Origin: a virus
Direction: 5' to 3' (one strand)
Length of the DNA: 44,342 nucleotides
Virus record (IMG/VR): IMGVR_UViG_3300037467_000252
Span: 1 to 44,342 of that record
The notes beneath the pieces were generated by a model, which saw only the letters and a list, made by a program, of their open reading frames with translations, had not been told where the DNA came from and ran no database searches. The position numbers and the translations under genes are program-made. Of the stretch, positions 1 to 18,788 are shown piece by piece. Position 1 is the first letter of the stretch. Each line of letters begins with the position of its first letter.

Positions 1-127
1 ACCAACGACCTCAGAATGTCTGATAGAAAAATGTGAGACGGCATCGACAAACTCCAGGCGGCCGGTCTCCCCCGTGCCCACGCGCGCCCGCGGTATCGCG
101 TAGGGGCGCCCTCGCGCGCACGGAGTG
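1..127. repeat. Left copy of an exact 127-bp terminal direct repeat (identical to 44216..44342)
   Basis: Read directly. Bases 1-127 (ACCAACGACCTCAGAATG...GCGCACGGAGTG) recur without mismatch as the last 127 bases of the window. Confidence 0.95.
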
Positions 128-148
128 GCAACCACGCGCGCCCGCGGT
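78..148 (+). repeat. 17-bp direct repeat CCACGCGCGCCCGCGGT (78-94 and 132-148)
   Basis: Two exact copies. One lies inside the 127-bp terminal repeat and one just outside it. Confidence 0.9.
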
Positions 149-229
149 GGTCTATCTCCACACCTTCCACCACCACACTGGTCTAACCCATTGATTTCAC
201 TAGGGGTGTGGGAGATCTGACATCCCAAC

Positions 230-512
230 GCGCACCACTCGCGCACCATACGCGCGCATGATGGGGCACTAGATCTGGTAGCCTAGTGGCCTAGAAAGGC
301 ACGACAGGCACAAGATGTTGTGCCGTGCGCTTGGTGTGGGGTGTATCAATCCGTTTTCGCACGCCTAGCGCACCATTGGCGCACCACAAGCGCACCACAA
401 GCGCACGCCTAGCGCACCACAAGCGCCACGCTGGCACAGCCCTTCAAGCGCACCACAAGCGCACCGGTAGCGCACCGATCGAACCGCTTCGGCACAGCCC
501 TTCAAGCGCACC
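230..512 (+). repeat. Array of at least 11 same-strand GCGCACC(A) motifs, partly in 11-bp phase
   Basis: GCGCACC starts at 230, 241, 368, 379, 390, 412, 448, 459, 470 and 506, with a variant GCGCACG at 401. The runs 368-412 and 448-470 are spaced exactly 11 bp. An AT-rich tract follows at about 575-640. Confidence 0.85.
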
Positions 513-513
513 A
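433..513 (+). repeat. 23-bp direct repeat GGCACAGCCCTTCAAGCGCACCA (433-455 and 491-513)
   Basis: Two exact copies embedded in the GCGCACC array. Confidence 0.9.
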
Positions 514-930
514 TTTCGACGGCTCACAGCCTACCCAAAACACCGCCACAAGCGCCACAAACGCACCGCCACGTGATTTTTTTTCGTTTGTTTTGACAGT
601 GGCTTAGGCCTCATTTCGAGGTCCATCAGTGATTTTTTTGGAATGCAGGGGTGGACAGCATTCCGGGATGGGATTACAACTCTGTCCATCGGCAGCGGCA
701 ACGCAGCCGGTCAGACCGAAGGAAACGCCGTGCGGGGCACCGGAGGTCGAGGTCTTTGACAATGTGCATCTAACGGCGCGCCGAAGGGCTCACCTAGAAC
801 GGGTGAGCGAGGCGGGTCGATAGGAACCAAGGGGACCGCTGTGAAGCGGGCTCGGGAGGGTTCCACACAACTCACAAGGCGCCATCAGGCGGGTGAGCTG
901 TGCCCTAACCCTTCCACCCTGGAGTTTCTC

Positions 931-1674
931 ATGAACGGTGCAATCATCTACCGCGGTCCCTCGATGCTGGACGGCGCTCCGATCGTGGTTGTGGCAACGG
1001 GCCTCGATGGCAAGTTTCGCAACTCTAAGACGGGCGCTCTCGTGCAAACCTGGATCATGCGGGACGATGTGAGCCCGGTCGAGGCGGTCAAGTCTGGCCT
1101 CGATGCGTCCATCTGCGGGGGCTGTGCTCATCGTGGGACCATCGAGGCGGGCAAGAACGTCGGCCGGTCCTGCTACGTCAAGGTTTTCCAGGCCCCGCTT
1201 GTGGTCTGGAAGACGGCGAAGGCGGGCAAATACGAGACCGTCGAGGCGGGCGAACTGGCCTCGATTGGCGAAGGCAAGCGCATCCGTCTCGGCTCCTACG
1301 GCGATCCTGCCGCGGTGCCTATGGCGGTCTGGGATGCCTTCCTGGCGAAGGCGGATGCCTTCACGGGCTACACCCATCAGTGGCGCGAGGCGGATCTGTC
1401 TCGCTACGTCATGGCCTCCTGTGACAGCGAGGCGGACTACATCGAGGCGAAGGCGAGGGGGTATCGGACCTTCCGCATCCGTCCCTCGATTGAGGCGCCC
1501 TTGAACCGGCGCGAAGTGGTGTGCCCTGCCTCGAAGGAGGCGGGCTACAAGACAACCTGCGCAAGCTGTGTCGCTTGTGGCGGTCACGGGGCGAAGGCGA
1601 AGGCGGACATTGCCATCGTCATCCACGGACAGGCGGCCCAAACGAAGGCGTATGCCGCTCGAATTGCGGCCTGA
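931..1674 (+). CDS. Hypothetical Cys-rich early protein (first gene from the left end)
   Basis: Part of ORF 841..1674. ATG 931 has GGAG 6 nt upstream. The translation is protein-like with CGGCAH and CASCVACGG cysteine clusters. I recognise no family. Confidence 0.6.
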   Translation: MNGAIIYRGPSMLDGAPIVVVATGLDGKFRNSKTGALVQTWIMRDDVSPVEAVKSGLDASICGGCAHRGTIEAGKNVGRSCYVKVFQAPLVVWKTAKAGKYETVEAGELASIGEGKRIRLGSYGDPAAVPMAVWDAFLAKADAFTGYTHQWREADLSRYVMASCDSEADYIEAKARGYRTFRIRPSIEAPLNRREVVCPASKEAGYKTTCASCVACGGHGAKAKADIAIVIHGQAAQTKAYAARIAA

Positions 1675-1676
1675 TG

Positions 1677-1692
1677 TATGCACCATCGAGGA
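1677..1692 (+). promoter_or_regulatory. Weak variant of the CTATSCACC intergenic motif (TATGCACCATCGAGGA)
   Basis: Lies between stop 1674 and ATG 1702. It shares CACCATCGAGGA with the copy at 42234. Confidence 0.3.
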
Positions 1693-1701
1693 TCATTCGA
1701 C

Positions 1702-1815
1702 ATGCTCAAAGAAACCGACACCACACCGGTGCTGATCGAGGCGGGCGAGTACTTCGCCCTCTCAGCCTCGGTCCTCGGCTCGATCCTCTTCGGAGTGATC
1801 ATGTTCATCCACTAA
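1702..1815 (+). CDS. Small hydrophobic protein (37 aa)
   Basis: ATG with GAGGA 9 nt upstream. Translation is MLKETDTTPVLIEAGEYFALSASVLGSILFGVIMFIH. It falls below the ORF-track length cut-off. Confidence 0.35.
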   Translation: MLKETDTTPVLIEAGEYFALSASVLGSILFGVIMFIH

Positions 1816-1816
1816 A

Positions 1817-1874
1817 GGGCGAAACTAGGCGGGCACCCGTCTAGTCCAGGCGTGAGGCGCCTGCTGATGAGCCC
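1817..1874 (+). ncRNA. Hammerhead ribozyme motif, type II (HH1); predicted scission after C1846
   Basis: GGGC 1817-1820. GAAA 1821-1824. Stem III 1824-1832 with 1837-1845. GUC 1844-1846. Stem I CAGGCG 1847-1852 with CGCCUG 1858-1863. CUGAUGA 1864-1870. GCCC 1871-1874 pairs with GGGC. Confidence 0.75.
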
Positions 1875-1914
1875 ATCAGTCAACTCTTGGCCCACCTACA
1901 GGCGAGACAGAGCC

Positions 1915-2109
1915 ATGGAAATCGTTCACCTTGTGCATCTGGTCGGTGAGTACAACGAGGTCATTGGCGTCTTCGCCAATACGCTCTTCGCGGTGTCCCT
2001 GCTCCATGGCGGGCACCACTACATCATGGTCCATGTCCGCCGCTGGCGCATCGCCAAGCGCAAGGGCCACCCGGTCAACAAGGCCGAGGAGATCCGCGAG
2101 CTGATCTAG
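1915..2109 (+). CDS. Hypothetical protein (64 aa)
   Basis: Internal ATG of ORF 1852..2109. The longer form would run through HH1. Confidence 0.45.
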   Translation: MEIVHLVHLVGEYNEVIGVFANTLFAVSLLHGGHHYIMVHVRRWRIAKRKGHPVNKAEEIRELI

Positions 2110-2132
2110 GCGGGCTCGCACAGCTTCCCACA

Positions 2133-2197
2133 GGGCGAAACGTCGGGCGCCGGTTCGGTGCCCTTCGTCCAGGCGTCAAGCGCCTGCTGATGAGCCC
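2133..2197 (+). ncRNA. Hammerhead ribozyme motif, type II (HH2); predicted scission after C2169
   Basis: GGGC 2133-2136. GAAA 2137-2140. Stem III 2140-2152 with 2156-2168 (2x2 internal loop). GUC 2167-2169. Stem I 2170-2175 with 2181-2186. CUGAUGA 2187-2193. GCCC 2194-2197. Confidence 0.75.
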
Positions 2198-2222
2198 ATC
2201 AGAATGTCCGAAGGAGCACAGT

Positions 2223-2321
2223 ATGCACGCTCTTGAGTTGCTGGGAGCCCTGTTCCTGGCGGTCGGTGCCACCACCGGTCTCGCCTTCGCGCTGGTCTAC
2301 TTCGCGGAGGAGTACCTGTGA
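2223..2321 (+). CDS. Small membrane protein (32 aa)
   Basis: AAGGAG lies 6 nt upstream of the ATG. Translation is MHALELLGALFLAVGATTGLAFALVYFAEEYL. Confidence 0.35.
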   Translation: MHALELLGALFLAVGATTGLAFALVYFAEEYL

Positions 2322-2488
2322 TGCCGACCTATCGCATCGAGAAGGTTCGCAGCGGCTGGGCCGTGACTGCGGACCATGGCGAGGCGTCACCAACCTTCCT
2401 CGCCAAGTACGACACCCGCAAGCAGGCCCGCACCATGGCTCGGCTCATGGCGGGCTGGCGCGGTCGAGTGGTGGAGGTGCGGGCATGA
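2321..2488 (+). CDS. Hypothetical protein (55 aa)
   Basis: TGATG overlap with the previous ORF. Translation starts MPTYRIEKVRSGWAVTADHGEASPTFLAKYDTRKQART. Confidence 0.4.
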   Translation: MPTYRIEKVRSGWAVTADHGEASPTFLAKYDTRKQARTMARLMAGWRGRVVEVRA

Positions 2489-2568
2489 TCCTCGTCATCA
2501 CCCTCGCCATCCTCGCCATGGGCTGTGTCGGCCTCCTCGTCTGTGACTGGGGGGAGGACGACCAGTGA
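2485..2568 (+). CDS. Tiny membrane protein (27 aa)
   Basis: ATGA overlap with the previous ORF. Translation is MILVITLAILAMGCVGLLVCDWGEDDQ, the tail of track ORF 2233..2568. Confidence 0.3.
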   Translation: MILVITLAILAMGCVGLLVCDWGEDDQ

Positions 2569-2789
2569 TCGACCCACAAGGCGCTCTCATCATCCTCTGG
2601 CTGGTCTTCTGCGCCGGCTGGATCGCCTACTGGGCCGGTGGTTGCCTCTGGCGCAACATCATCCGCCCCTGGCTGGAAATCTGGCGCAGCACAGAAGGCT
2701 TCGGCCGGCTCGTGCTGGTCTACCTCTCCCTCTGCATCGTGGTGCCGGTCGGGCTGGCGCTCCTGACCTTCTTCGGGCGGCACCATTGA
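2565..2789 (+). CDS. Membrane protein (74 aa, two hydrophobic segments)
   Basis: Track ORF. GTG start overlaps the previous stop (GTGA). Confidence 0.5.
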   Translation: MIDPQGALIILWLVFCAGWIAYWAGGCLWRNIIRPWLEIWRSTEGFGRLVLVYLSLCIVVPVGLALLTFFGRHH

Positions 2790-2962
2790 GGATCAAGCCT
2801 CTGTTCCAACGAGGCGACTTCGCCATCGGCCAGCGCATCCTCTTCGGTGCGCCGGTCATCAAGGGCACGGTGACCGCGGTGCGGCCGACCATGCTCTCGG
2901 TCCTGACGGAGGCGGGCGAGAACAAGCTCATCGCCTTCGTCCAGGTCCGCGCGACGCTCTAA
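2786..2962 (+). CDS. Hypothetical small protein (58 aa, possible TTG start)
   Basis: The tail of ORF 2525..2962 is protein-like (RIKPLFQRGDFAIGQRILFGAPVIKGTVTAV...). TTG 2786 overlaps stop 2787-2789. Confidence 0.3.
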   Translation: MRIKPLFQRGDFAIGQRILFGAPVIKGTVTAVRPTMLSVLTEAGENKLIAFVQVRATL

Positions 2963-2964
2963 GC

Positions 2965-3029
2965 CCGCCTGAAGAGGCCCCTGACGAGGGCCGAAACCTC
3001 CTCTGGTTGTGAGCCAGGGGCGGTCGCGG
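2965..3029 (+). ncRNA. Hammerhead ribozyme motif, type I (HH3); predicted scission after C3025
   Basis: Stem I CCGC 2965-2968 with GCGG 3026-3029. CUGAAGA 2969-2975. Stem II GGCCC 2976-2980 with GGGCC 2988-2992. GAAA 2993-2996. Stem III 2996-3006 with 3014-3024 (one U-C mismatch, one G-U pair). GUC 3023-3025. Confidence 0.7.
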
Positions 3030-3060
3030 CATGTCCGCATGTATGCAGGAGTGGAATGCT

Positions 3061-3546
3061 ATGGCCAAAGTGAAGGTCTACTGGAACGTCCGCGCCGGCC
3101 TCTGGAGCGTCATGGATGCTCGCACCCGGCGGGTTCTCGGAAGCGCGACCCAGGTGCTGATTCGGGATGCAACATTTCTCGTAAGCGAGGCTGGACGAGA
3201 GCGTGTCAAGCGCGAACGCTGCAAAAACGTGCATGCCTTCGTAATAGGCGATTTGGAGGCCGCGATCTGGCACTCAGCGCCTGAGGGTGCTGCCGCTTGT
3301 GAATGGGACTGGAAGCCTATGCACAACAATTACCTCCGCAACGTTGCAAATCAGCGGGGGATAAGGGTCACGTACAATCCTTATAGGGATCAAGGGTTTA
3401 GGGAGGTGCTGTCCGGTCGGCCTGTGGACAACTCGCCGGCTGCCTACCTCACCTGGGACTGCGCCGGATCTGAGGACTTGACGCCTAAGCCTCGGGTGAT
3501 GATGTTCGACCCAGGATGCGAACACAACGAGAACAAAGCTGCCTGA
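3061..3546 (+). CDS. Hypothetical protein (161 aa)
   Basis: Internal ATG of ORF 3031..3546 with AGGAG 9 nt upstream. Translation starts MAKVKVYWNVRAGLWSV and includes KNVHAFVIGD. G+C is lower than in the flanks. Confidence 0.6.
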   Translation: MAKVKVYWNVRAGLWSVMDARTRRVLGSATQVLIRDATFLVSEAGRERVKRERCKNVHAFVIGDLEAAIWHSAPEGAAACEWDWKPMHNNYLRNVANQRGIRVTYNPYRDQGFREVLSGRPVDNSPAAYLTWDCAGSEDLTPKPRVMMFDPGCEHNENKAA

Positions 3547-3605
3547 CGAGGCCCGCGAGGGGCCGAAACCTAGGGAGTAATTAAAATGCTCCCGATGGTC
3601 GCAGC
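3538..3605 (+). ncRNA. Hammerhead ribozyme motif, type I (HH4); predicted scission after C3600
   Basis: Stem I GCUGC 3538-3542 with GCAGC 3601-3605. CUGACGA 3543-3549, where UGA 3544-3546 is the stop of the upstream ORF. Stem II GGCCC 3550-3554 with GGGCC 3560-3564. GAAA 3565-3568. Stem III ACC 3568-3570 and GGGAG 3573-3577 with CUCCC 3589-3593 and GGU 3597-3599. GUC 3598-3600. Confidence 0.75.
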
Positions 3606-3772
3606 CAAGGTGTCACACAAAAGTCACCAATGCTGACTCCGCTGCCTCTAAAAAACCCCACGGAGGGGGCAAACGGCCGCGGTGAAAGACGCACCCGGAG
3701 AGCTGTGCGAGGTAGGGATGCAACCCGGCCCGCTTACCGTGAGCGCCACAACCACAACAAGAGATCACGCTG

Positions 3773-4054
3773 ATGAGACGGGACAAGCTGAACGGTATCA
3801 GTCTCAGAATGCCGTTCGTTGGGGAGGTGACGCTGCTCACTCTCCAGGGCGATTGGAAGGGTGACGGAGAACACCCGCGGCCGTTCCTGTGCCGATACCA
3901 AGAGCCCAACGACCCAGCCGTGCAGTACAACATCGGCTGGCTATCTATCCTTCGCGATCCGCCGGGGGGTTCGATCGCGCACAACGGACTCGTGATCAAG
4001 GCGCTGGGTTGCGCCACGGCAGTGCGAGCCGTTATCCTCGCACTGATAAGCTAA
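3773..4054 (+). CDS. Hypothetical protein (93 aa)
   Basis: Track ORF. It is more protein-like than the overlapping minus-strand ORF. I recognise no motif. Confidence 0.35.
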   Translation: MRRDKLNGISLRMPFVGEVTLLTLQGDWKGDGEHPRPFLCRYQEPNDPAVQYNIGWLSILRDPPGGSIAHNGLVIKALGCATAVRAVILALIS

Positions 4055-4068
4055 CCACCCTAGGAACG
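4051..4068 (+). promoter_or_regulatory. CTATSCACC-family motif variant (CTAACCACCCTAGGAACG)
   Basis: Resembles the copy at 8450 (CGATGCACCCTAGGAATG). It lies upstream of the MarR-type gene. Confidence 0.35.
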
Positions 4069-4087
4069 TGATGCAGAGTCGCATACC

Positions 4088-4127
4088 TCCTCGGGTGAAT
4101 TGTTAACACATCCTTTCACCCGGAGGA
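4088..4127 (+). promoter_or_regulatory. Imperfect inverted repeat around a central GTTAAC (candidate operator or translational hairpin)
   Basis: TCCTCGGGTGA 4088-4098 pairs with TCACCCGGAGGA 4116-4127, with one bulged base. The right arm contains the GGAGGA Shine-Dalgarno of ATG 4133. Confidence 0.4.
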
Positions 4128-4132
4128 CGTAA

Positions 4133-4630
4133 ATGGGTCAACTAGACGTTGACGCTCTGAACGAGCGCAGTAAATCTGGCCTTCTGGCCACCATGGCCCT
4201 TTCAGGAGCGAACAGTGTGAGTGCGGGAGAACTGAAAAAGTTAATGGACCGCACACAGCGGGCACTGAAGTTCCAGCGGGAACAAGGTGATCTACTGACC
4301 CCACAGGCTCTGCAAATTATGTTCAACATAGCGTTAGAGCCCGGTATTACGATGCAGAACTTACAAAAGCCGACCGGGCTTAATCTTTCATCGGTCTCCA
4401 GAAATCTATCCGCCCTCGGGAAGTATCATCGTCTAGGGAAGGAAGGTCTGGACTTCTGCGAAACTGTGCAGGACCCAATCGAGCGGCGGCGCATGATCGC
4501 CTTCCTCACCAAGAAGGGCAGGGACTTCCTGTCCAACTACCTCACGATTCTGACGGGCGAGCCGGTCTGTATCGAGAGCCCTACGAGCCACGAGTGGCTT
4601 GCCCGGCGGCACCGCCTAGCGAGCCGCTGA
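4133..4630 (+). CDS. MarR-family winged-helix transcriptional regulator (candidate lysogeny regulator)
   Basis: wHTH signature ITMQNLQKPTGLNLSSVSRNLSALGK followed by ETVQDPIERRRMIAFLTKKGRDFL. Confidence 0.7.
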   Translation: MGQLDVDALNERSKSGLLATMALSGANSVSAGELKKLMDRTQRALKFQREQGDLLTPQALQIMFNIALEPGITMQNLQKPTGLNLSSVSRNLSALGKYHRLGKEGLDFCETVQDPIERRRMIAFLTKKGRDFLSNYLTILTGEPVCIESPTSHEWLARRHRLASR

Positions 4631-4638
4631 TCCTAACG

Positions 4639-4667
4639 CCCCTGAGGCTCTACCTCGGGGGCTTTAG
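4639..4667 (+). terminator. Hairpin CCCCUGAGG-CUCUA-CCUCGGGGG followed by CUUU
   Basis: 9-bp stem with one U-G pair. It lies between the MarR-type gene and the convergent tRNA. The U-tract is short. Confidence 0.4.
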
Positions 4668-4680
4668 GCCGTTGTGAGGA

Positions 4681-4769
4681 TGGTGGCGGCTGCGGGAATC
4701 GAACCCGCACACTGCTCTCGCAGCGAGGCATTTTAAGTGCCTTGCGTCTACCGGTTTCGCCAAGCCGCC
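4681..4769 (-). tRNA. tRNA-Leu, anticodon UAA, type II (long variable arm), CCA encoded
   Basis: The reverse complement folds by hand. Acceptor GGCGGCT/AGCCGCC. 3-bp D stem GCG/CGC. Anticodon stem AGGCA/TGCCT with loop CTTAAAA. 17-nt variable arm with stem GCTGC/GCAGT. T arm GCGGG-TTCGATT-CCCGC. Then ACCA. Total 89 nt. Confidence 0.85.
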
Positions 4770-4776
4770 AGCGGAC

Positions 4777-4794
4777 CTATCCACCATAGGAGAG
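4777..4794 (+). promoter_or_regulatory. CTATSCACC-family motif (CTATCCACCATAGGAGAG) immediately upstream of int
   Basis: It begins 8 nt beyond the tRNA 5' end. Its AGGAGAG doubles as the int Shine-Dalgarno. Confidence 0.45.
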
Positions 4795-4800
4795 CTTACC

Positions 4801-5835
4801 ATGGCGACCCAGAGAGGATCGTCCTGGCAGGGGACGGTCTACCACAAGGATCTACCTGCCGGCCGCGCTCGTCGCAACTTCGAGACCAAGCGCGATGCCG
4901 AGGCCTGGGAGCACGAGAGCAAGGCCCGCCTCATGAGGGGTGAGCCCATCGACATGGGGGAGGGGCACAAGGCCGGGCAGGCTCGCAAGGCCGGTCAGCC
5001 CTACACCCTCCGCGAGCTGGTCGAGCACGTCGCTCACACCCGCTGGAAGAAGACGAGCGCCGGCATCCGGCAGCACCGGAACGCCGAGCTGATCGCGGCC
5101 ATCATCGGCCCCAACAAGCCCATCTCCGCGGTCACCAAGGTGGACGTGGACAAGGCCCGCGGCCAGCTCCTCCAGGAGGGCAACTCGCCGGCCACGGTGA
5201 ACCGCAAGGTGGCCGCGCTCTCCACGTGCCTGTCCGAGGCTGTCGAGAGCGGCATCATCCAGGCCAAGCCCAAGATGGCGAAGTACAAGGAGAGCGAGCA
5301 CCGCATCCGCCGGTTCACCCCGGAGGAGGAGGCCTTCGCCCTCTCGTTCTTCGAGCGCATGAGCGAGCCTGACATGGCCGACTACGTGGCCCTGTCCCTC
5401 GATACCGGCATGCGCCAGGGCGAGGTGCTCAACCTCCGCTTCCAGGACTGCGACACCGATAAGGCCACGGTATGGGGCACAGGAGCCAAGTCAGGGCGCA
5501 CGAGGAGCATTCCCCTCACCAAGCGCGCGAAGGCCGTCCTGGAGCGCCGTAGGGCAGGGAAGAGGCCTTCTGATCGCGTCTTCGAGGGCTGGGACCGGTA
5601 CGGCCTGGACCGGCACTGGACGAAGCTCCGGGAGGCCCTGCACCTGACGGACGATGCCCAGTTCGTGCCCCACGTCCTGCGTCACGAGTTCTGCTCGCGG
5701 CTCGCGGACAAGGGCCTGAACGCGGCGGTGATCCAGCAGCTCGCCGGCCACTCGACGCTCGCCATCACGCAACGGTACATTCACGTGAAGGCCGAGCATC
5801 TGGTCAGGGCCATTAGGGAGCTTGAAGCGGCATGA
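4801..5835 (+). CDS. int: Tyrosine recombinase / phage integrase
   Basis: C-terminal catalytic region HVLRHEFCSRLADKGLN...LAGHSTLAITQRYIH carries the R, H-x-x-R and Y signature. The protein has an N-terminal SAM-like core-binding region. Confidence 0.9.
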   Translation: MATQRGSSWQGTVYHKDLPAGRARRNFETKRDAEAWEHESKARLMRGEPIDMGEGHKAGQARKAGQPYTLRELVEHVAHTRWKKTSAGIRQHRNAELIAAIIGPNKPISAVTKVDVDKARGQLLQEGNSPATVNRKVAALSTCLSEAVESGIIQAKPKMAKYKESEHRIRRFTPEEEAFALSFFERMSEPDMADYVALSLDTGMRQGEVLNLRFQDCDTDKATVWGTGAKSGRTRSIPLTKRAKAVLERRRAGKRPSDRVFEGWDRYGLDRHWTKLREALHLTDDAQFVPHVLRHEFCSRLADKGLNAAVIQQLAGHSTLAITQRYIHVKAEHLVRAIRELEAA

Positions 5836-8449: not shown

Positions 8450-8467
8450 CGATGCACCCTAGGAATG
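8450..8467 (+). promoter_or_regulatory. CTATSCACC-family motif variant (CGATGCACCCTAGGAATG)
   Basis: Intergenic, about 36 nt upstream of the RNAP ATG. Confidence 0.4.
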
Positions 8468-8502
8468 ATCCTTATCAACGACCACGCATAGACGAGGTAC
8501 TT

Positions 8503-11010
8503 ATGTTGACCATTGAAGAGGCCATGAAGCTCCCGAACTGGGAGAAGCAAGTGGAACTGGAGACTGACATGCGGTCTCTGGGCATCGAGAAGTTCCGCAA
8601 AGCTGCGGAGAAGGCCAAGGAGAAGGGTCAGGAGACCCGGATGGCTCCAGTTCGTCGGATGATGATGGACTGCCACGAGAAGATGCTGGCTGCTCTCCAC
8701 GAGTTCTACGCTGAAGTGGAGGCCAAGAAGGCTGGTCGGAAGCACAGCGCCTATCCGTACCTGAAGGGCATCGACCACGACGATCTGGTCGCCCACGTCA
8801 CGTGCAAGGTGATCCTGGACGTGGCCGTGCAGCGCAAGAGCCTGTCCCACGTCGCGGTCATGATCGCGGAGATGCTGGAGGACGAGTGCAACTTCCGCCT
8901 GTTCAAGGAGCAGCACACCGCCGGCTACCTGAAGGCCGTGTCCCGCGTGAAGGACAAGACCAACGAGCGGTACAAGCGCCGGTCGGTGAAGGCCACCGCC
9001 TCGAAGCTGGGCGTCAACCTCCTGGAGTGGCCCAAGCGGGACATGATCCTGGTCGGCTCGAAGCTGATCGAGATGTTCGTGGAGGCGACCCACTGCGCCC
9101 GTGTGGTCGATGGGATCGGCAACCGGAAGGTGGTCGAGAGCGTGCCTGAGGCCCGTGCCTGGATCGAGGAGGAGAGCCGGCGCTGTGAGCTGCTGACCCC
9201 GCAGTTCATGCCCTGCGTGATCCCCCCGAAGCCTTGGACGACCCCCTACGATGGCGGCTACTGGACCGGCCGGGCGCGCAAGCTGGTGCTCGTGAAGAGC
9301 CCGAACCGGGCCTACCTGGAGGATCTGGCCGACCGGCCCATGCCGATCGTCTACGAAGCCGTCAACGCGCTCCAGAACACCGGCTGGACGATCAACCCGA
9401 TGGTCCTGGAGGTCATGACCTACCTCTTCGAGCGGAACTCCCGCTGCGGTGTGGTTCCGCAGATCAAGCCCGAGAAGGAGCCTAACAAGCCCCTGTGGCT
9501 GGTCGAGGGGCTGAAGAAGGAGGACATGACCCCCGAGCAGCTCGAAGAGTTCATCGCCTGGAAGAGCCGGGCCACCGAGGTGATCGAAAAGAACGCCGAG
9601 CAGCTCTCCAAGAGCAAGGCCTTCAACTCGATGCTGGGCGTGGCCAAGCGGTTCAAGGACGAGCCCGCCTTCTACTACCCCTACCAGCTCGACTGGCGCG
9701 GCAGGGCCTACCCCGTGGGCCTGTACCTCCAGCCGCAGGGCAACGACGCCCAGCGTGGCCTGCTCCAGTTCGCTGACTTCGTGGCGATCGAGGACCAGGA
9801 GGCTGCGAACTGGCTGATGATCCACGGCGCAGGACTGTGGGGCAAGGACAAGGGCTCCTTCGAGGACCGCATCGAGTGGATCAAGCAGCACGAGGAGCAG
9901 ATCTTGGCCTCCGCGGCTGACCCGTATGAGAACCGCTTCTGGATGTACGAGGAGAAGGACGGCAAGATGGAAGACAACGAGAAGGCTTGGCAGGCCCTGG
10001 CGTTCTGCTTCGACTACGCTGGCTTCGTGCGTGAGGGCTTCGGATACATGAGCCGTCTGCCGATCCAGATGGACGGGACTTGCAACGGCATCCAAAATTT
10101 CTCGGCTATGCTGCTCGATGCCCGCGGCGGTGCTGCGGTCAACCTCGTCCCGGCTGACAAGCCCCAGGACATCTACTCCGAGGTCATGGAGGTGGTGAAG
10201 AAGCGGGTCGCGGAGGATGCTGCCGGTGGTGGCAAGCCCGAGCACCAGCCCCTGGCGGCTATGTGGGTCGGCAACATCGTCCGCAAGACGGTCAAGCGGC
10301 CCGTCATGACCCTGGCCTACGGCGCCAAGCGGTTCGGCTTCACCGACATGGTGATGCAGGACACGGTGCGCGTCTGGAAGAAGGAGCGTCCCGAGACGTA
10401 TCCCTTCGGCACGCAGGGGTTCCAGGCTGCGCAGTACCTGGGTGGCTGCATCTGGGAGGCTGTGCAGGAGGTCGTGGTCGCCGCTGCGGAGGCCATGCGC
10501 TGGCTCCAGGACGTAGCCCGCATCGTCTCGAAGGAGGCTCTGCCGATCTACTGGACCACGCCCACGGGCCTGCTCGTCCTCCAGCAGTACAAGCTGCGGG
10601 ACATGAAGAACATCCTGATGACGTTCCAGAAGGTCGTGATCCAGGTGAAGGTGGACAAAGGATCAGACAAGCTGGACAGCAAGAAACAGGCATCCGGCAT
10701 CGCACCGAACTGGGTCCATAGTCTGGATGCCAGCCACATGATGCTGACTATTCGTGCCGCAATGCATGCAGGGGTGCATAGTTTCTCTTTCATCCACGAC
10801 AGCTACGGCACCCACGCGGGCAACACGGCGAAGCTCGCGCGCATCCTGCGGGAGGAGTTCGTGAAGATGTACGGGGGCGAGTGCGTCCTGGAGCGGTTCC
10901 GTGCCGACCTCCAGGCCATGCTGCCCGAGGGCGTTCAGCTCCCACCGGTGCCGACCAAAGGCTCGCTGGACCTGAACCAAGTGCTTGAGAGCAAATTCTT
11001 TTTTGCCTGA
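8503..11010 (+). CDS. T7-like single-subunit DNA-directed RNA polymerase
   Basis: PIQMDGTCNGIQNFSAMLLD, FIHDSYGTH and the C-terminal FFFA match T7 RNAP motifs (DGSCSGIQHFSAML, HDSFGT, FAFA). ATG 8503 has GAGG upstream. The longer track start at 8452 would overlap the intergenic motif. Confidence 0.95.
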   Translation: MLTIEEAMKLPNWEKQVELETDMRSLGIEKFRKAAEKAKEKGQETRMAPVRRMMMDCHEKMLAALHEFYAEVEAKKAGRKHSAYPYLKGIDHDDLVAHVTCKVILDVAVQRKSLSHVAVMIAEMLEDECNFRLFKEQHTAGYLKAVSRVKDKTNERYKRRSVKATASKLGVNLLEWPKRDMILVGSKLIEMFVEATHCARVVDGIGNRKVVESVPEARAWIEEESRRCELLTPQFMPCVIPPKPWTTPYDGGYWTGRARKLVLVKSPNRAYLEDLADRPMPIVYEAVNALQNTGWTINPMVLEVMTYLFERNSRCGVVPQIKPEKEPNKPLWLVEGLKKEDMTPEQLEEFIAWKSRATEVIEKNAEQLSKSKAFNSMLGVAKRFKDEPAFYYPYQLDWRGRAYPVGLYLQPQGNDAQRGLLQFADFVAIEDQEAANWLMIHGAGLWGKDKGSFEDRIEWIKQHEEQILASAADPYENRFWMYEEKDGKMEDNEKAWQALAFCFDYAGFVREGFGYMSRLPIQMDGTCNGIQNFSAMLLDARGGAAVNLVPADKPQDIYSEVMEVVKKRVAEDAAGGGKPEHQPLAAMWVGNIVRKTVKRPVMTLAYGAKRFGFTDMVMQDTVRVWKKERPETYPFGTQGFQAAQYLGGCIWEAVQEVVVAAAEAMRWLQDVARIVSKEALPIYWTTPTGLLVLQQYKLRDMKNILMTFQKVVIQVKVDKGSDKLDSKKQASGIAPNWVHSLDASHMMLTIRAAMHAGVHSFSFIHDSYGTHAGNTAKLARILREEFVKMYGGECVLERFRADLQAMLPEGVQLPPVPTKGSLDLNQVLESKFFFA

Positions 11011-18600: not shown

Positions 18601-18788
18601 TGATCATCACCGTCTGTGCCGGCATCTTGTCGGCACATCCTGGCTGCGTGCTCGATGAAGTGAAGCTGTTGAAGGAGGTCACTCCCCAGCAGTGCCTCAT
18701 CAGCGGCCAGCAGTACCTCGCGAAGAAGCAGCCCTTCTACAACGAGCAGGGCTTCAACATCTACGCCTATGGGTGCCGCCGTGGCTGA
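18594..18788 (+). CDS. Hypothetical small Cys-containing protein (64 aa)
   Basis: Tail of ORF 18381..18788, starting MHMIITVCAGILSAHPGC. The start may instead be ATG 18600, because the motif at 18584 overlaps it. Confidence 0.35.
   Translation: MHMIITVCAGILSAHPGCVLDEVKLLKEVTPQQCLISGQQYLAKKQPFYNEQGFNIYAYGCRRG

Follow-up and report, generated by a model that had tools for sequence, protein, structure and literature searches.

The window, that is, the whole 44,342-nt stretch of DNA that was analysed, comes from a T7-like temperate phage with a single-subunit RNA polymerase, an integrase and a tRNA-Leu gene, an identity based on the RNA polymerase, the integrase and phage protein families. Four predicted hammerhead ribozymes are found on its plus strand between positions 1817 and 3605, where they separate four gene blocks. 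The two considered here, HH3 (2965-3029) and HH4 (3538-3605), lie in the early rightward region, and a promoter scan of positions 1-5000 found no sigma-70-like promoter. As the earlier note had proposed, they bracket a single plus-strand gene of 161 codons plus stop (3061..3546). The TGA at 3544-3546 closes an open reading frame that extends over 3031..3546, within which the start codon preceded by a Shine-Dalgarno sequence (AGGAG, 3047..3051) is the ATG at 3061; this start codon lies 35 nt from the HH3 cleavage site. The encoded protein belongs to Pfam PF25735 (Phage_L5_gp82) and to phrog_586, families without assigned function in Pfam and PHROGs, and a search for a relative in the PDB gave none. 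The gene is 70% identical to the syntenic gene of a related locus, L121. Searching viral contigs with the protein yielded one close relative and three distant ones, the latter without hammerheads, and the same search in GTDB species genomes gave no match.

Hammerheads were sought on both strands of the window with a descriptor requiring the core, a stem I of at least 4 bp and stems II and III of at least 3 bp each. Exactly four motifs were returned, all on the plus strand and within 1.8 kb. Two hundred first-order Markov shuffles of the window, scanned with the same descriptor, yielded 0.005 type I motifs per window and no type II motif. The other two motifs are type II hammerheads located upstream of HH3 and HH4, at about 1817-1874 and 2133-2197, and each of the four begins within about 25 nt of a stop codon. 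All coordinates that had been assigned to HH3 and HH4 agree with the sequence base for base.

In HH3 the hammerhead core is complete and the three helices follow the type I order, stems I, II and III having 4, 5 and at least 3 bp in the descriptor scan. It starts 2 nt downstream of the TAA stop codon of the upstream open reading frame (2960..2962), a spacing that is the same in L111 and L149. The 5' strand of stem I, CCGC (2965..2968), pairs with GCGG (3026..3029) and is followed by core residues C3 to A9, CUGAAGA (2969..2975). The stem II hairpin (2976..2992) is made of GGCCC (2976-2980) and GGGCC (2988-2992), and the GAAA motif (2993-2996) supplies core residues G12, A13 and A14 (2993..2995) together with A15.1, which opens the stem III hairpin (2996..3024, ending with U16.1). 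The strands of stem III (2996-3006 and 3014-3024) enclose the loop UUGUGAG and contain a U2999/C3021 mismatch and a U3002-G3018 wobble; read from the sequence they form 3 bp, the mismatch and then 7 bp, and RNAfold extends the latter to 9 pairs by pairing U with G and U with A inside the loop, of which 3 nt remain. Every invariant core element is present (CUGAAGA, GAA, the A2996-U3024 pair and C3025). Hammerhead geometry puts cleavage after the nucleotide at position 17, so that HH3 is predicted to be cut after C3025, generating a 3' product that begins with a 5'-OH at G3026 (3025..3026). The 4-bp stem I, to which attention had been drawn as being short, is no defect, since this is the commonest length in the class (84 of 144 motifs).

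HH3 also contains a second CUGACGA, which forms loop II (2981-2987). We considered it as an alternative core and rejected it, in agreement with the earlier note, because GGGCC-GAAA directly adjoins it and leaves no room for a stem II hairpin. The apparent decoy is conserved as loop II, and a 4-bp pseudoknot can form between this loop and the 3' tail, GACG (2983-2986) being complementary to UGUC (3032..3035) with one G-U pair. Beyond stem I, its 5' strand is repeated as CCGC at 3035..3038, and pairing of this copy with GCGG 3026-3029 produces a hairpin at the extreme 5' end of the 3' cleavage product. The minimum-energy fold of HH3 consists of two mini-hairpins (-33.8 kcal/mol), the hammerhead fold (-28.5 kcal/mol) lying 5.3 kcal/mol higher, and nearest-neighbour folding gives pair probabilities of about 0.03 for stems I and II. 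Since the hammerhead is not the minimum-energy fold in these calculations, HH3 may depend on the pseudoknot or may be slow. Rapid cleavage at physiological Mg2+ requires a tertiary contact, either between loops or as a pseudoknot, that aligns stems I and II.

HH4 likewise comprises, in type I order, a complete core and three helices (5, 5 and at least 3 bp for stems I, II and III in the descriptor scan). Its stem I is formed by GCUGC (3538..3542), which lies within the last sense codons of the bracketed gene, and GCAGC (3601..3605). The core CUGACGA (3543..3549) includes the UGA that, as had been pointed out, is the stop codon of that gene (3544-3546). The stem II hairpin (3550..3564) pairs GGCCC (3550-3554) with GGGCC (3560-3564) around the loop GCGAG and is followed by G12, A13 and A14 (3565..3567) in a GAAA motif (3565-3568). 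Stem III (3568..3599) consists of ACC/GGU, an internal loop of UA (3571-3572) opposite GAU (3594-3596), and GGGAGUA/UGCUCCC closed by the loop AUUAAAA; the corresponding motif, CCUAGGG...CCCGAUGG, recurs in about 22 of 26 viral loci. All invariant positions are again present (CUGACGA, GAA, A3568-U3599 and C3600), and the same geometry predicts cleavage after C3600 with a 3' product starting at G3601 (3600..3601). The minimum-energy fold of HH4 is exactly the hammerhead fold (z = -3.3). A tertiary contact or pseudoknot was sought in the tail and none was found, the best helix amounting to 2 bp of Watson-Crick pairs, or 3 bp with G-U. A possible GCUGC repeat of the stem I 5' strand occurs 35 nt past stem I (3641..3645); it is weaker than the repeat of HH3, although L111 also has a downstream GCUGC despite a different intervening sequence, and the fold of 3601-3660 has a z of -2.4. 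As no downstream plus-strand gene with a ribosome-binding site was found near HH4, its role may differ from that of HH3 and could be, for example, 3' end formation.

The covariance-model scan of 2900-3700 that had been suggested as a check gave a divided answer, custom viral models matching both motifs and the Rfam hammerhead families matching neither. At the gathering threshold, Rfam retrieved a tRNA as the sole match in the whole window and no hammerhead family; at E ≤ 10 on 2900-3700 no hammerhead family was returned for HH3 or HH4, and on 1750-2250 the type II pair was matched below threshold only (15.8 bits vs a gathering score of 37). A model built from 11 unrelated viral sequences (R1) gave 38.2 bits for HH3 and 34.0 bits for HH4. 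A second model (R2), for which 150 independent type I hammerheads of phages were used and the window and its relatives were left out, scored the two at 49.5 bits (E = 1e-11) and 40.9 bits (E = 3e-9), respectively. The third-best R2 match in the window (16.6 bits, 18618-18707, minus strand) was dismissed as a hammerhead: it has CUGAUGAG but lacks GAAA or a stem II. A significant score with a curated Rfam model was obtained for neither copy. The invariant core, the three helices and the compensatory changes in relatives support the assignment of both loci to type I, as first proposed from their layout.

Comparison with relatives indicated that the pairing of the stems is conserved, as the earlier note required. 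L111/L121 is syntenic with the window (76-78% nucleotide identity), the layout of the hammerhead array is repeated in L111 and L149, and an HH3-like element is also present in L149 and in Caulobacter phage S2B. Because a MAFFT alignment of the four HH3 orthologs misaligned stem III, these were folded individually. In all four the stem III sequence differs and the fold is the same, with a core-proximal helix of 3-4 bp, a single mismatched or unpaired position and a 9-bp outer stem. The four orthologs do not differ in stems I and II of HH3, whose compensatory support therefore comes at class level only. L111, L149 and phage S2B all retain loop II, and the candidate pseudoknot is kept among orthologs through G-C or G-U pairs; the tail strand, UGUC in the window, is CGUC in L149 and S2B, which makes the pairing with GACG entirely Watson-Crick. 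In the HH4 ortholog, stem II is GCCC/GGGC, one pair having been lost on both sides, and distal stem III is altered yet still paired. All 13 core positions are intact in HH3, in HH4 and in every ortholog, the stems diverging with compensation. The exact HH3 pattern was found in one metagenomic contig and gave no match in GTDB genomes.

A comparison set of 144 distinct type I motifs from viral contigs allowed us to describe the class to which the two copies belong, in which stem I is open and short (4-5 bp) and stem II is rich in G+C. Across the class, 99.5% of cells are paired and 12 of 14 pairs change on both sides, a covariation score and a paired-cell percentage that were reached by none of 500 shuffles. 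Because the family statistics were computed on related contigs, their significance is overstated; read with this limit, the helix between loop II and the tail averages 3.38 bp across the family (2.70 ± 0.07 after permutation), and 57 of 137 members, vs 27.8 ± 3.9 expected, repeat the 5' strand of stem I further downstream, mostly 3-13 nt away. In 37% of motifs, vs 19% of control CTGA sites, the core UGA closes an open reading frame of 60 codons or more, the control rate reflecting the chance occurrence of frames of this length in GC-rich DNA. In 40% of motifs a stop codon precedes the core by 7-11 nt and in 41% by 3-12 nt, compared with 4% of controls for the latter interval; taken together, a stop codon is found in the core or at most 12 nt from it in 78% of 137 motifs and in 23% of controls. 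Start codons preceded by a Shine-Dalgarno sequence follow the cleavage site at a median of 38 nt in the family, close to the 35 nt of HH3. These positions show that the predicted ribozymes of this class occupy an exact place, after one stop codon and ahead of the following ribosome-binding site. Hammerhead arrays are common in viral contigs, and adjacent members have cross-compatible stem I strands in 72% of 61 pairs vs 20% at random, or in 6 of 23 pairs vs 7.6% when their stems differ.

Taken from the sequence evidence, HH3 and HH4 are probably functional self-cleaving type I hammerheads that cut the early transcript into single-gene mRNAs. On a polycistronic early RNA, each ribozyme would fold when the 3' strand of its stem I emerges, HH3 being aided by the pseudoknot between loop II and the tail, and would cleave itself after C3025 or C3600. 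Together with the two upstream type II hammerheads, whose predicted cuts follow C1846 and C2169, HH3 and HH4 would thereby divide the transcript into single-gene mRNAs, among them a 575-nt gp82-like mRNA extending from 3026 to 3600. Owing to the type I topology, the upstream mRNA would keep the entire ribozyme as a structured 3' end, with a 2',3'-cyclic phosphate located 54 nt beyond the stop codon; the mRNA that follows would begin with a 5'-OH and a leader of just 35 nt. After cleavage, the weak 4-bp stem I of HH3 could be replaced by the hairpin between GCGG 3026-3029 and CCGC 3035-3038, an exchange that would free the product, prevent its re-ligation and cap the new 5' end. Since the stop codon is in or beside the core, a terminating ribosome would cover stem I and the core and would have to leave before the ribozyme folds or refolds. 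Overall, such a system would be a host-independent counterpart of the processing of T7 early mRNA by RNase III.

Instead of constitutive punctuation, cleavage might provide a translation-linked regulatory switch, through which the relative stability and translation of adjacent early genes are tuned. Given a stop codon at or next to the core, the time of hammerhead folding could be determined by ribosomes translating the upstream gene, and the CCGC / GCGG / CCGC toggle could set the cleaved fraction. The frequency of stop codons in the core or within 12 nt of it (78% vs 23%), the enrichment of competing strands across the family and the greater stability of a non-hammerhead fold for HH3 are all consistent with this proposal. 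Yet simple genome compaction also predicts tight spacing, CUGA includes a stop codon by necessity, the alternative folds give no sign of being populated and the order of co-transcriptional folding favours the active fold first, so that we regard such a switch as unlikely. The motifs might also be modular or selfish boundary elements, conserved over 60-75 nt and spreading from phage to phage or acting as recombination joints, with cleavage being incidental. This would account for the HH3-like element of S2B, which is about 80% identical to that of the window over 75 nt amid unrelated flanking genes, for the almost identical motifs of stem I and the downstream leader, CUGCAAUGGAG among them, that are shared within arrays, and for the absence of hammerheads from gp82-like genes elsewhere. 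It is made improbable by the strong covariation, which keeps a catalytically competent fold and therefore points to selection on the RNA and not on the DNA alone, and by the exact placement next to stop codons and ribosome-binding sites, which suggests a role in expression.

Two further explanations concern the fate of the RNA and the activity of the motifs. The 575-nt RNA (3026-3600) would carry a 5'-OH and a 2',3'-cyclic phosphate, and either the ligation activity of the hammerhead or an RtcB-type ligase of the host might close it into a circular mRNA or regulatory RNA; matched stem I strands would then be functional, in that the 5'-OH end made by HH3 docks on the HH4 strand. RtcB-type ligases suit ends of this chemistry, the 5' end GCGGC can pair with GCUGC of HH4 over 5 bp with one G-U, and the cross-compatibility of neighbouring stem I strands in arrays (72% vs 20%) agrees with such a docking. 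If this were true, phage hammerhead arrays would be factories of circular single-gene mRNAs, and stop-codon overlap and the strand toggle would govern cutting versus joining. We hold it to be very improbable: duplication of a cassette predicts shared stems, product release rather than ligation is to be expected of a stem I of 4-5 bp that competes with a hairpin, and Perreault et al., working on prophage arrays, sought spliced or circular products and found none (PMC3088659). It is scarcely credible, finally, that one or both motifs are inactive look-alikes, arising as chance matches or decayed copies. Rfam does not match them, HH3 has another minimum-energy fold, HH4 lacks a recognizable tertiary contact and some inactive hammerhead-like RNAs are listed by Perreault et al. 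(PMC3088659); against this stand the chance expectation of 0.005 per window, the E values of 1e-11 and 3e-9 with an independent model, and 13 of 13 core positions kept in the copies and their orthologs with compensated stems. Processing of the early transcript by active ribozymes remains our preferred explanation.

The biological role of bacterial and phage hammerheads has been described as largely elusive (PMC6765202). In the present case, four predicted self-cleaving ribozymes in the early region of a T7-like temperate phage are missed wholly by standard Rfam annotation, and exact RNA ends are predicted at 3025/3026 and 3600/3601. The regularities of the 144-motif set constrain models of function, through the proximity of a stop codon in about 78% of motifs and a spacing of about 38 nt from cut to start. 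Further constraints of this kind are the pairing of loop II with the 3' tail and the second stem I strand, positioned to fold the new 5' end.

In T7, the polycistronic early mRNA is cut between genes by RNase III, leaving 3'-OH and 5'-phosphate ends. HH3 and HH4 resemble these sites as functional analogues, not as homologues, since the predicted cuts are intergenic and would leave the upstream mRNA with a structured 3' end. They differ from them in that cleavage would be carried out by the RNA itself, with no host enzyme, and in the predicted ends (2',3'-cyclic phosphate and 5'-OH). The core and three-way junction are identical to those of Rfam families RF00163 (Hammerhead_1), RF02276 (Hammerhead_II) and RF00008 (Hammerhead_3), and the permutation is type I, as in RF00163; the sequences themselves are unmatched by these families at E ≤ 10. 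In the crystal structure reported by Zhan et al. (2024, Nat Commun), helix II is replaced by a pseudoknot and helix I carries an additional helix IV (PMC11300833). The candidate stabilizer of HH3 is similar in being a pseudoknot in place of loop-loop contacts, but HH3 retains a normal stem II hairpin, the loop of which would pair with the single-stranded 3' tail (PMC11300833).

Perreault et al. (2011, PLoS Comput Biol) described the closest parallel, clustered hammerheads on either side of prophage genes; sets from Agrobacterium tumefaciens, Azorhizobium caulinodans and Clostridium scindens were tested and found to cleave in vitro, the A. tumefaciens set also in E. coli (PMC3088659). The acceptance consensus given there is the same invariant core as used here, and about 40% of the hammerheads described have a stem I / stem II pseudoknot as tertiary contact (PMC3088659). 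HH3 and HH4 share with these arrays the presence of mixed-type hammerheads on one strand of phage DNA, flanking single genes or short blocks of varying identity, as well as alphaproteobacterial hosts and a proposed role in processing long phage transcripts to gene-length mRNAs. They differ from the arrays of that account in belonging to a temperate T7-like phage with a single-subunit RNA polymerase and in their overlap with stop codons, the term 'stop codon' being absent from the text of Perreault et al. as available (PMC3088659). The post-cleavage hairpin toggle and the UA/GAU loop of stem III may be further differences. Gene-by-gene punctuation by hammerheads is therefore already described in prophages, and HH3 and HH4 are new examples of it rather than a new type of element.

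Reading of positions 2800-3760 reproduced every coordinate that the earlier note had proposed for the type I hammerheads HH3 and HH4, both on the plus strand. HH3, as read from the sequence, has a stem I of CCGC (2965-2968) and GCGG (3026-3029), a core of CUGAAGA (2969-2975) and GAA (2993-2995), and a stem II with loop II (GGCCC, loop CUGACGA, GGGCC; 2976-2992); its stem III hairpin (A2996-U3024) contains a single U/C mismatch and a single G-U pair, and is followed by C3025 and GCGG. The corresponding parts of HH4 are GCUGC (3538-3542) and GCAGC (3601-3605) in stem I, CUGACGA (3543-3549) and GAA (3565-3567) in the core, GGCCC, loop GCGAG and GGGCC (3550-3564) in stem II, and, ahead of C3600 and GCAGC, a stem III hairpin (A3568-U3599) that is interrupted by the internal loop UA/GAU. 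The gene between them (3061-3546, plus strand) has the 161 codons ascribed to it, its ATG at 3061 standing behind the Shine-Dalgarno sequence AGGAG (3047-3051), and its stop does lie within the HH4 core, where TGA 3544-3546 closes the ORF 3031..3546. The upstream ORF ends at TAA 2960-2962, 2 nt ahead of HH3.

A descriptor requiring the full core, a stem I of at least 4 bp and stems II and III of at least 3 bp, in all three circular permutations, found exactly four hammerheads in the window, all on the plus strand: HH3, HH4 and two of type II (HH1, ~1817-1874; HH2, ~2133-2197). The expectation per window from 200 Markov-1 shuffles was 0.005 for type I, 0 for type II and 0.01 for type III. A looser pattern (core, stem II, GAAA), scanned on both strands, matched the HH3 and HH4 sites only. 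Rfam 15 at gathering thresholds reported a tRNA alone in the window, and a covariance scan of 2900-3700 with Rfam at E<=10 listed no hammerhead family. HH2 reached only 15.8 bits with Hammerhead_II (gathering score 37), and a Hammerhead_3 match at 1839-1913, overlapping the HH1 core, 18.3 bits (gathering score 48.5). Since scores were absent or below gathering, all four hammerheads would escape Rfam-based annotation.

Unlike Rfam, two covariance models made here matched both loci. R1, built from 11 equal-length type I motifs of unrelated viral contigs only and run unfiltered on the entire window, gave 38.2 bits (E = 2e-9) for HH3 and 34.0 bits (E = 4e-8) for HH4, the next-best match reaching 13.7 bits; elsewhere it found 155 matches in 97 other loci. 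In the alignment of the best 150 of these 155 matches (A3), standard pairs filled 99.5% of cells and 12 of the 14 pairs varied on both sides (363 cells). Neither the covariation score nor the percentage of paired cells was reached by any of 500 shuffles, and the signal was lost when the 3' partners were slid by one to three columns. R2, the model built from A3, gave 49.5 bits (E = 1.4e-11) for HH3, 40.9 bits (E = 3.3e-9) for HH4 and 16.6 bits for the next match, which was ruled out as a hammerhead on inspection. A CUGAUGA at 3770-3776 (plus strand), overlapping the ATG of the ORF 3773-4054, received no support from the descriptor and 8 bits from R1, and is probably a chance match.

A blastn search of 1700-3800 against 50,697 phage records gave one match only, in Caulobacter phage S2B, a member of the Autographiviridae with an integrase. 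The 75 nt matched cover HH3 with ~80% identity (window 2964-3038, L001 2549-2625), sit between two hypothetical genes and form a type I hammerhead by the descriptor. Scanning viral contigs for CTGANGA-GGCCC-loop-GGGCC-GAAAC yielded at least 119 loci with 144 distinct type I motifs (descriptor), frequently as same-strand arrays of 2-7. One of these loci, L111 (L121 is the same contig), shows synteny with the window over 810-5835 (76-78% nucleotide identity) and has all four hammerheads at the same places; on metagenome contig L149 are HH3, the type II pair and the beginning of the bracketed gene. No relatives were found in the GTDB species genomes searched.

Stem pairing is kept in these relatives. 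Stem I, core, stem II and loop II of HH3 are common to the window, L111, L149 and S2B, and stem III, which differs in sequence throughout, re-folds alike in all four, with 3-4 bp beside the core and an outer stem of 9 bp, separated by a single position that is unpaired or mismatched. N7, the sole free core position, is A, C, C and U across the four copies. In L111, HH4 stem II has one pair fewer on both strands (GCCC/GGGC) and the distal stem III GGGAG/CUCCC of the window becomes GGGCGC/GCGCCC, yet both stems pair. The genes flanking the HH3-like element of S2B show no similarity to those of the window; further upstream, the proteins of the gene at 841-1674 and of S2B gp064c share 60-70% identity. 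Hammerhead cassettes may be mobile, or may serve as joints at which gene modules recombine.

For HH4 the minimum-energy fold coincides fully with that of the hammerhead (-30.3 kcal/mol, z = -3.3). For HH3 it does not (-33.8 kcal/mol, the hammerhead fold having -28.5): two nearly identical units in tandem, CCUGAAGAGG and CCUGACGAGG (2967-2992, plus strand), each form a 4-bp mini-hairpin, and this fold is predicted to be 5.3 kcal/mol more stable by an energy model that leaves out the pseudoknot and core tertiary structure. By this prediction HH3 may be slower, or reliant on the pseudoknot. The tandem duplication is kept in L111, L149 and S2B.

The CUGACGA in HH3 loop II, which had been set aside as a decoy, is not a functional core, since what comes after it cannot form a stem II. 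All four orthologs nevertheless keep this loop, and CUGAC-type loops II recur on other stem II sequences in other loci. Within the HH3 loop, GACG (2983-2986) can pair with UGUC (3032-3035), 2 nt past stem I; L149 and S2B have CGUC instead, so that a pair switches between G-C and G-U. Loop II and the first 14 tail nt were compared in 137 members: the longest Watson-Crick helix that they can form (GUGAC/GUCAC, UUGGCUU/AAGCCAA and CACGC/GCGUG are examples) averaged 3.38 bp, against 2.70 ± 0.07 bp with partners permuted. This predicted loop II/tail pairing corresponds to the stem I/stem II pseudoknot of Perreault et al. (PMC3088659), who detected it in ~40% of hammerheads and showed that fast cleavage requires it. 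HH4 has no loop II complement in its tail.

The 5' strand of stem I often recurs in the tail, as in GCGG-aaguca-CCGC, GCGGG-aagcgu-CCCGC and, for HH3, GCGG-CAUGU-CCGC (3026-3038). An exact 4-nt complement 3-40 nt away was present in 57 of 137 members (27.8 ± 3.9 when permuted) and, for stems other than GCGG, in 21 of 94 (11.5 ± 2.8), most copies lying 3-13 nt away. The hairpin with this copy is mutually exclusive with both stem I and the pseudoknot; forming once the RNA has been cut, it would free the product and cap the product's 5' end. Evidence is weaker for HH4, where a GCUGC copy 35 nt downstream (3641-3645) is kept in L111 despite a different spacer. Many cassettes (L012, L074, L107 and others) have in their type I 3' tails a common leader motif, CUGCAAUGGAG(A), which holds a Shine-Dalgarno sequence just ahead of the start codon that follows. 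A single phage thus uses the entire intergenic cassette, from stop codon through hammerhead and 5' hairpin to ribosome-binding site, more than once.

In HH4, stem III is interrupted 3 bp from the core by an internal loop that lacks complementarity, 5'-CC UA GGG ... CCC GAU GG-3' (3569-3575 with 3591-3598). Among viral hammerheads picked by the 5' half alone (CGAAACCUAGGG), ~22 of 26 have CCC-(GAU/AAU/GAC/AAC)-GG on the 3' side, with differing stems I, II and distal stem III; the loop type also occurs in L111, L125, L127, L133, L137, L138, L144, L148 and others. From these comparisons it looks like a conserved non-Watson-Crick motif. HH1 and HH2 (1817-1879 and 2133-2202 with their tails; predicted cuts after C1846 and C2169) have the core and stem II strand CUGAUGA-GCCC, then AUCAG, so a CUGAU/AUCAG hairpin sequestering the core is possible. 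The type II relatives in L111, L149 and L144 have core CUGACGA and tail GUCAG; N7 thus covaries with the tail (U-A in three copies, C-G in three), which suggests that the hairpin is a real alternative structure, possibly post-cleavage.

Gene placement at 137 motifs was compared with that at CTGA sites taken from the same strands as controls. The core UGA closes an ORF of at least 60 codons at 37% of motifs and 19% of controls, the end of such an ORF precedes the core by 3-12 nt (7-11 nt in the actual cases) at 41% and 4%, and its stop is absent within 60 nt at 9% and 60%. Because stops cluster at or just before the core, the arrangement inferred for HH4, a terminating ribosome over the core, is typical of the class; the S2B copy likewise has its stop codon in the core. 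The cleavage site lies a median of 38 nt (interquartile range 28.5-49) from the first Shine-Dalgarno-preceded start of an ORF of at least 50 codons, and 35 nt from the start codon in HH3; HH4 has no such start within 300 nt.

The window is a T7-like phage. The closest relatives of its single-subunit RNA polymerase gene (8452-11010) are from Rhizobium and other alphaproteobacterial Autographiviridae (66-71% nucleotide identity). A complete tRNA-Leu(UAA) (4681-4769, minus strand) lies directly upstream of a tyrosine integrase (4801-5835, plus strand), nearly all long ORFs being on the plus strand; the attachment site of a temperate T7-like phage probably lies in this region. The hammerheads divide the early region into four blocks: gene(s) ending at 1815, a gene at 1916-2109, genes at 2224-2962 and the gene at 3061-3546. 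The protein of the last belongs to Pfam Phage_L5_gp82 and phrog_586, both of unknown function, and has no PDB relative. A terminator-like hairpin on the minus strand (3645-3670; GCCCCCUCCGUGGGG, then a U-run), 40 nt downstream of HH4, suggests convergent transcription ending beside the last hammerhead. For 3610-4130, tblastx against L111 gave an ambiguous coding strand.

These analyses established the sequence, fold, covariation and placement of HH3 and HH4. Self-cleavage would be co-transcriptional, after C3025 and C3600, and would give a 575-nt monocistronic mRNA whose 3' end, structured by the retained HH4, bears a 2',3'-cyclic phosphate; the downstream RNA would have a 5'-OH end, refolded into a hairpin, and terminating ribosomes would mask the core transiently. 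HH4 may chiefly define a 3' end, since no translated plus-strand gene is close by and a terminator-like hairpin occupies the opposite strand at 3670-3655. The functional analogue of the proposed cleavage is the RNase III processing of T7 early mRNA.

We considered the possibility that the excised RNA is circularised. Stem I is cross-compatible in 72% of adjacent hammerhead pairs versus 20% at random, and the HH3 3' product GCGGC pairs with GCUGC of HH4; yet much of this compatibility is explained by common descent. The stops in and before the cores also have to be read with a regulatory switch coupled to translation in mind, and the reuse of cassettes with modular or selfish boundary elements. 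The remaining alternative, that HH3 and HH4 are inactive look-alikes, is to be weighed with the HH3 fold on one side and the covariation on the other.

Prophage genes flanked by multiple hammerheads of all three types were described by Perreault et al. 2011 (PMC3088659); in that work, ~2-kb transcripts of A. tumefaciens, A. caulinodans and C. scindens were shown to cleave, processing into gene-length mRNAs was the proposed role, and circular or spliced products were not found. A 2019 review (PMC6765202) held the role of bacterial self-cleaving ribozymes to be still largely elusive. Given the 2011 precedent, HH3 and HH4 are further examples of a kind already described in prophages; compared with open-access papers, the regularities of pseudoknot, downstream copy and gene placement may go beyond published work. 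The unrelated genes flanking the element in the window and S2B, together with the distant homologues of the bracketed gene elsewhere, which have no hammerheads, fit the published remark that the identities of hammerhead-flanked genes vary.
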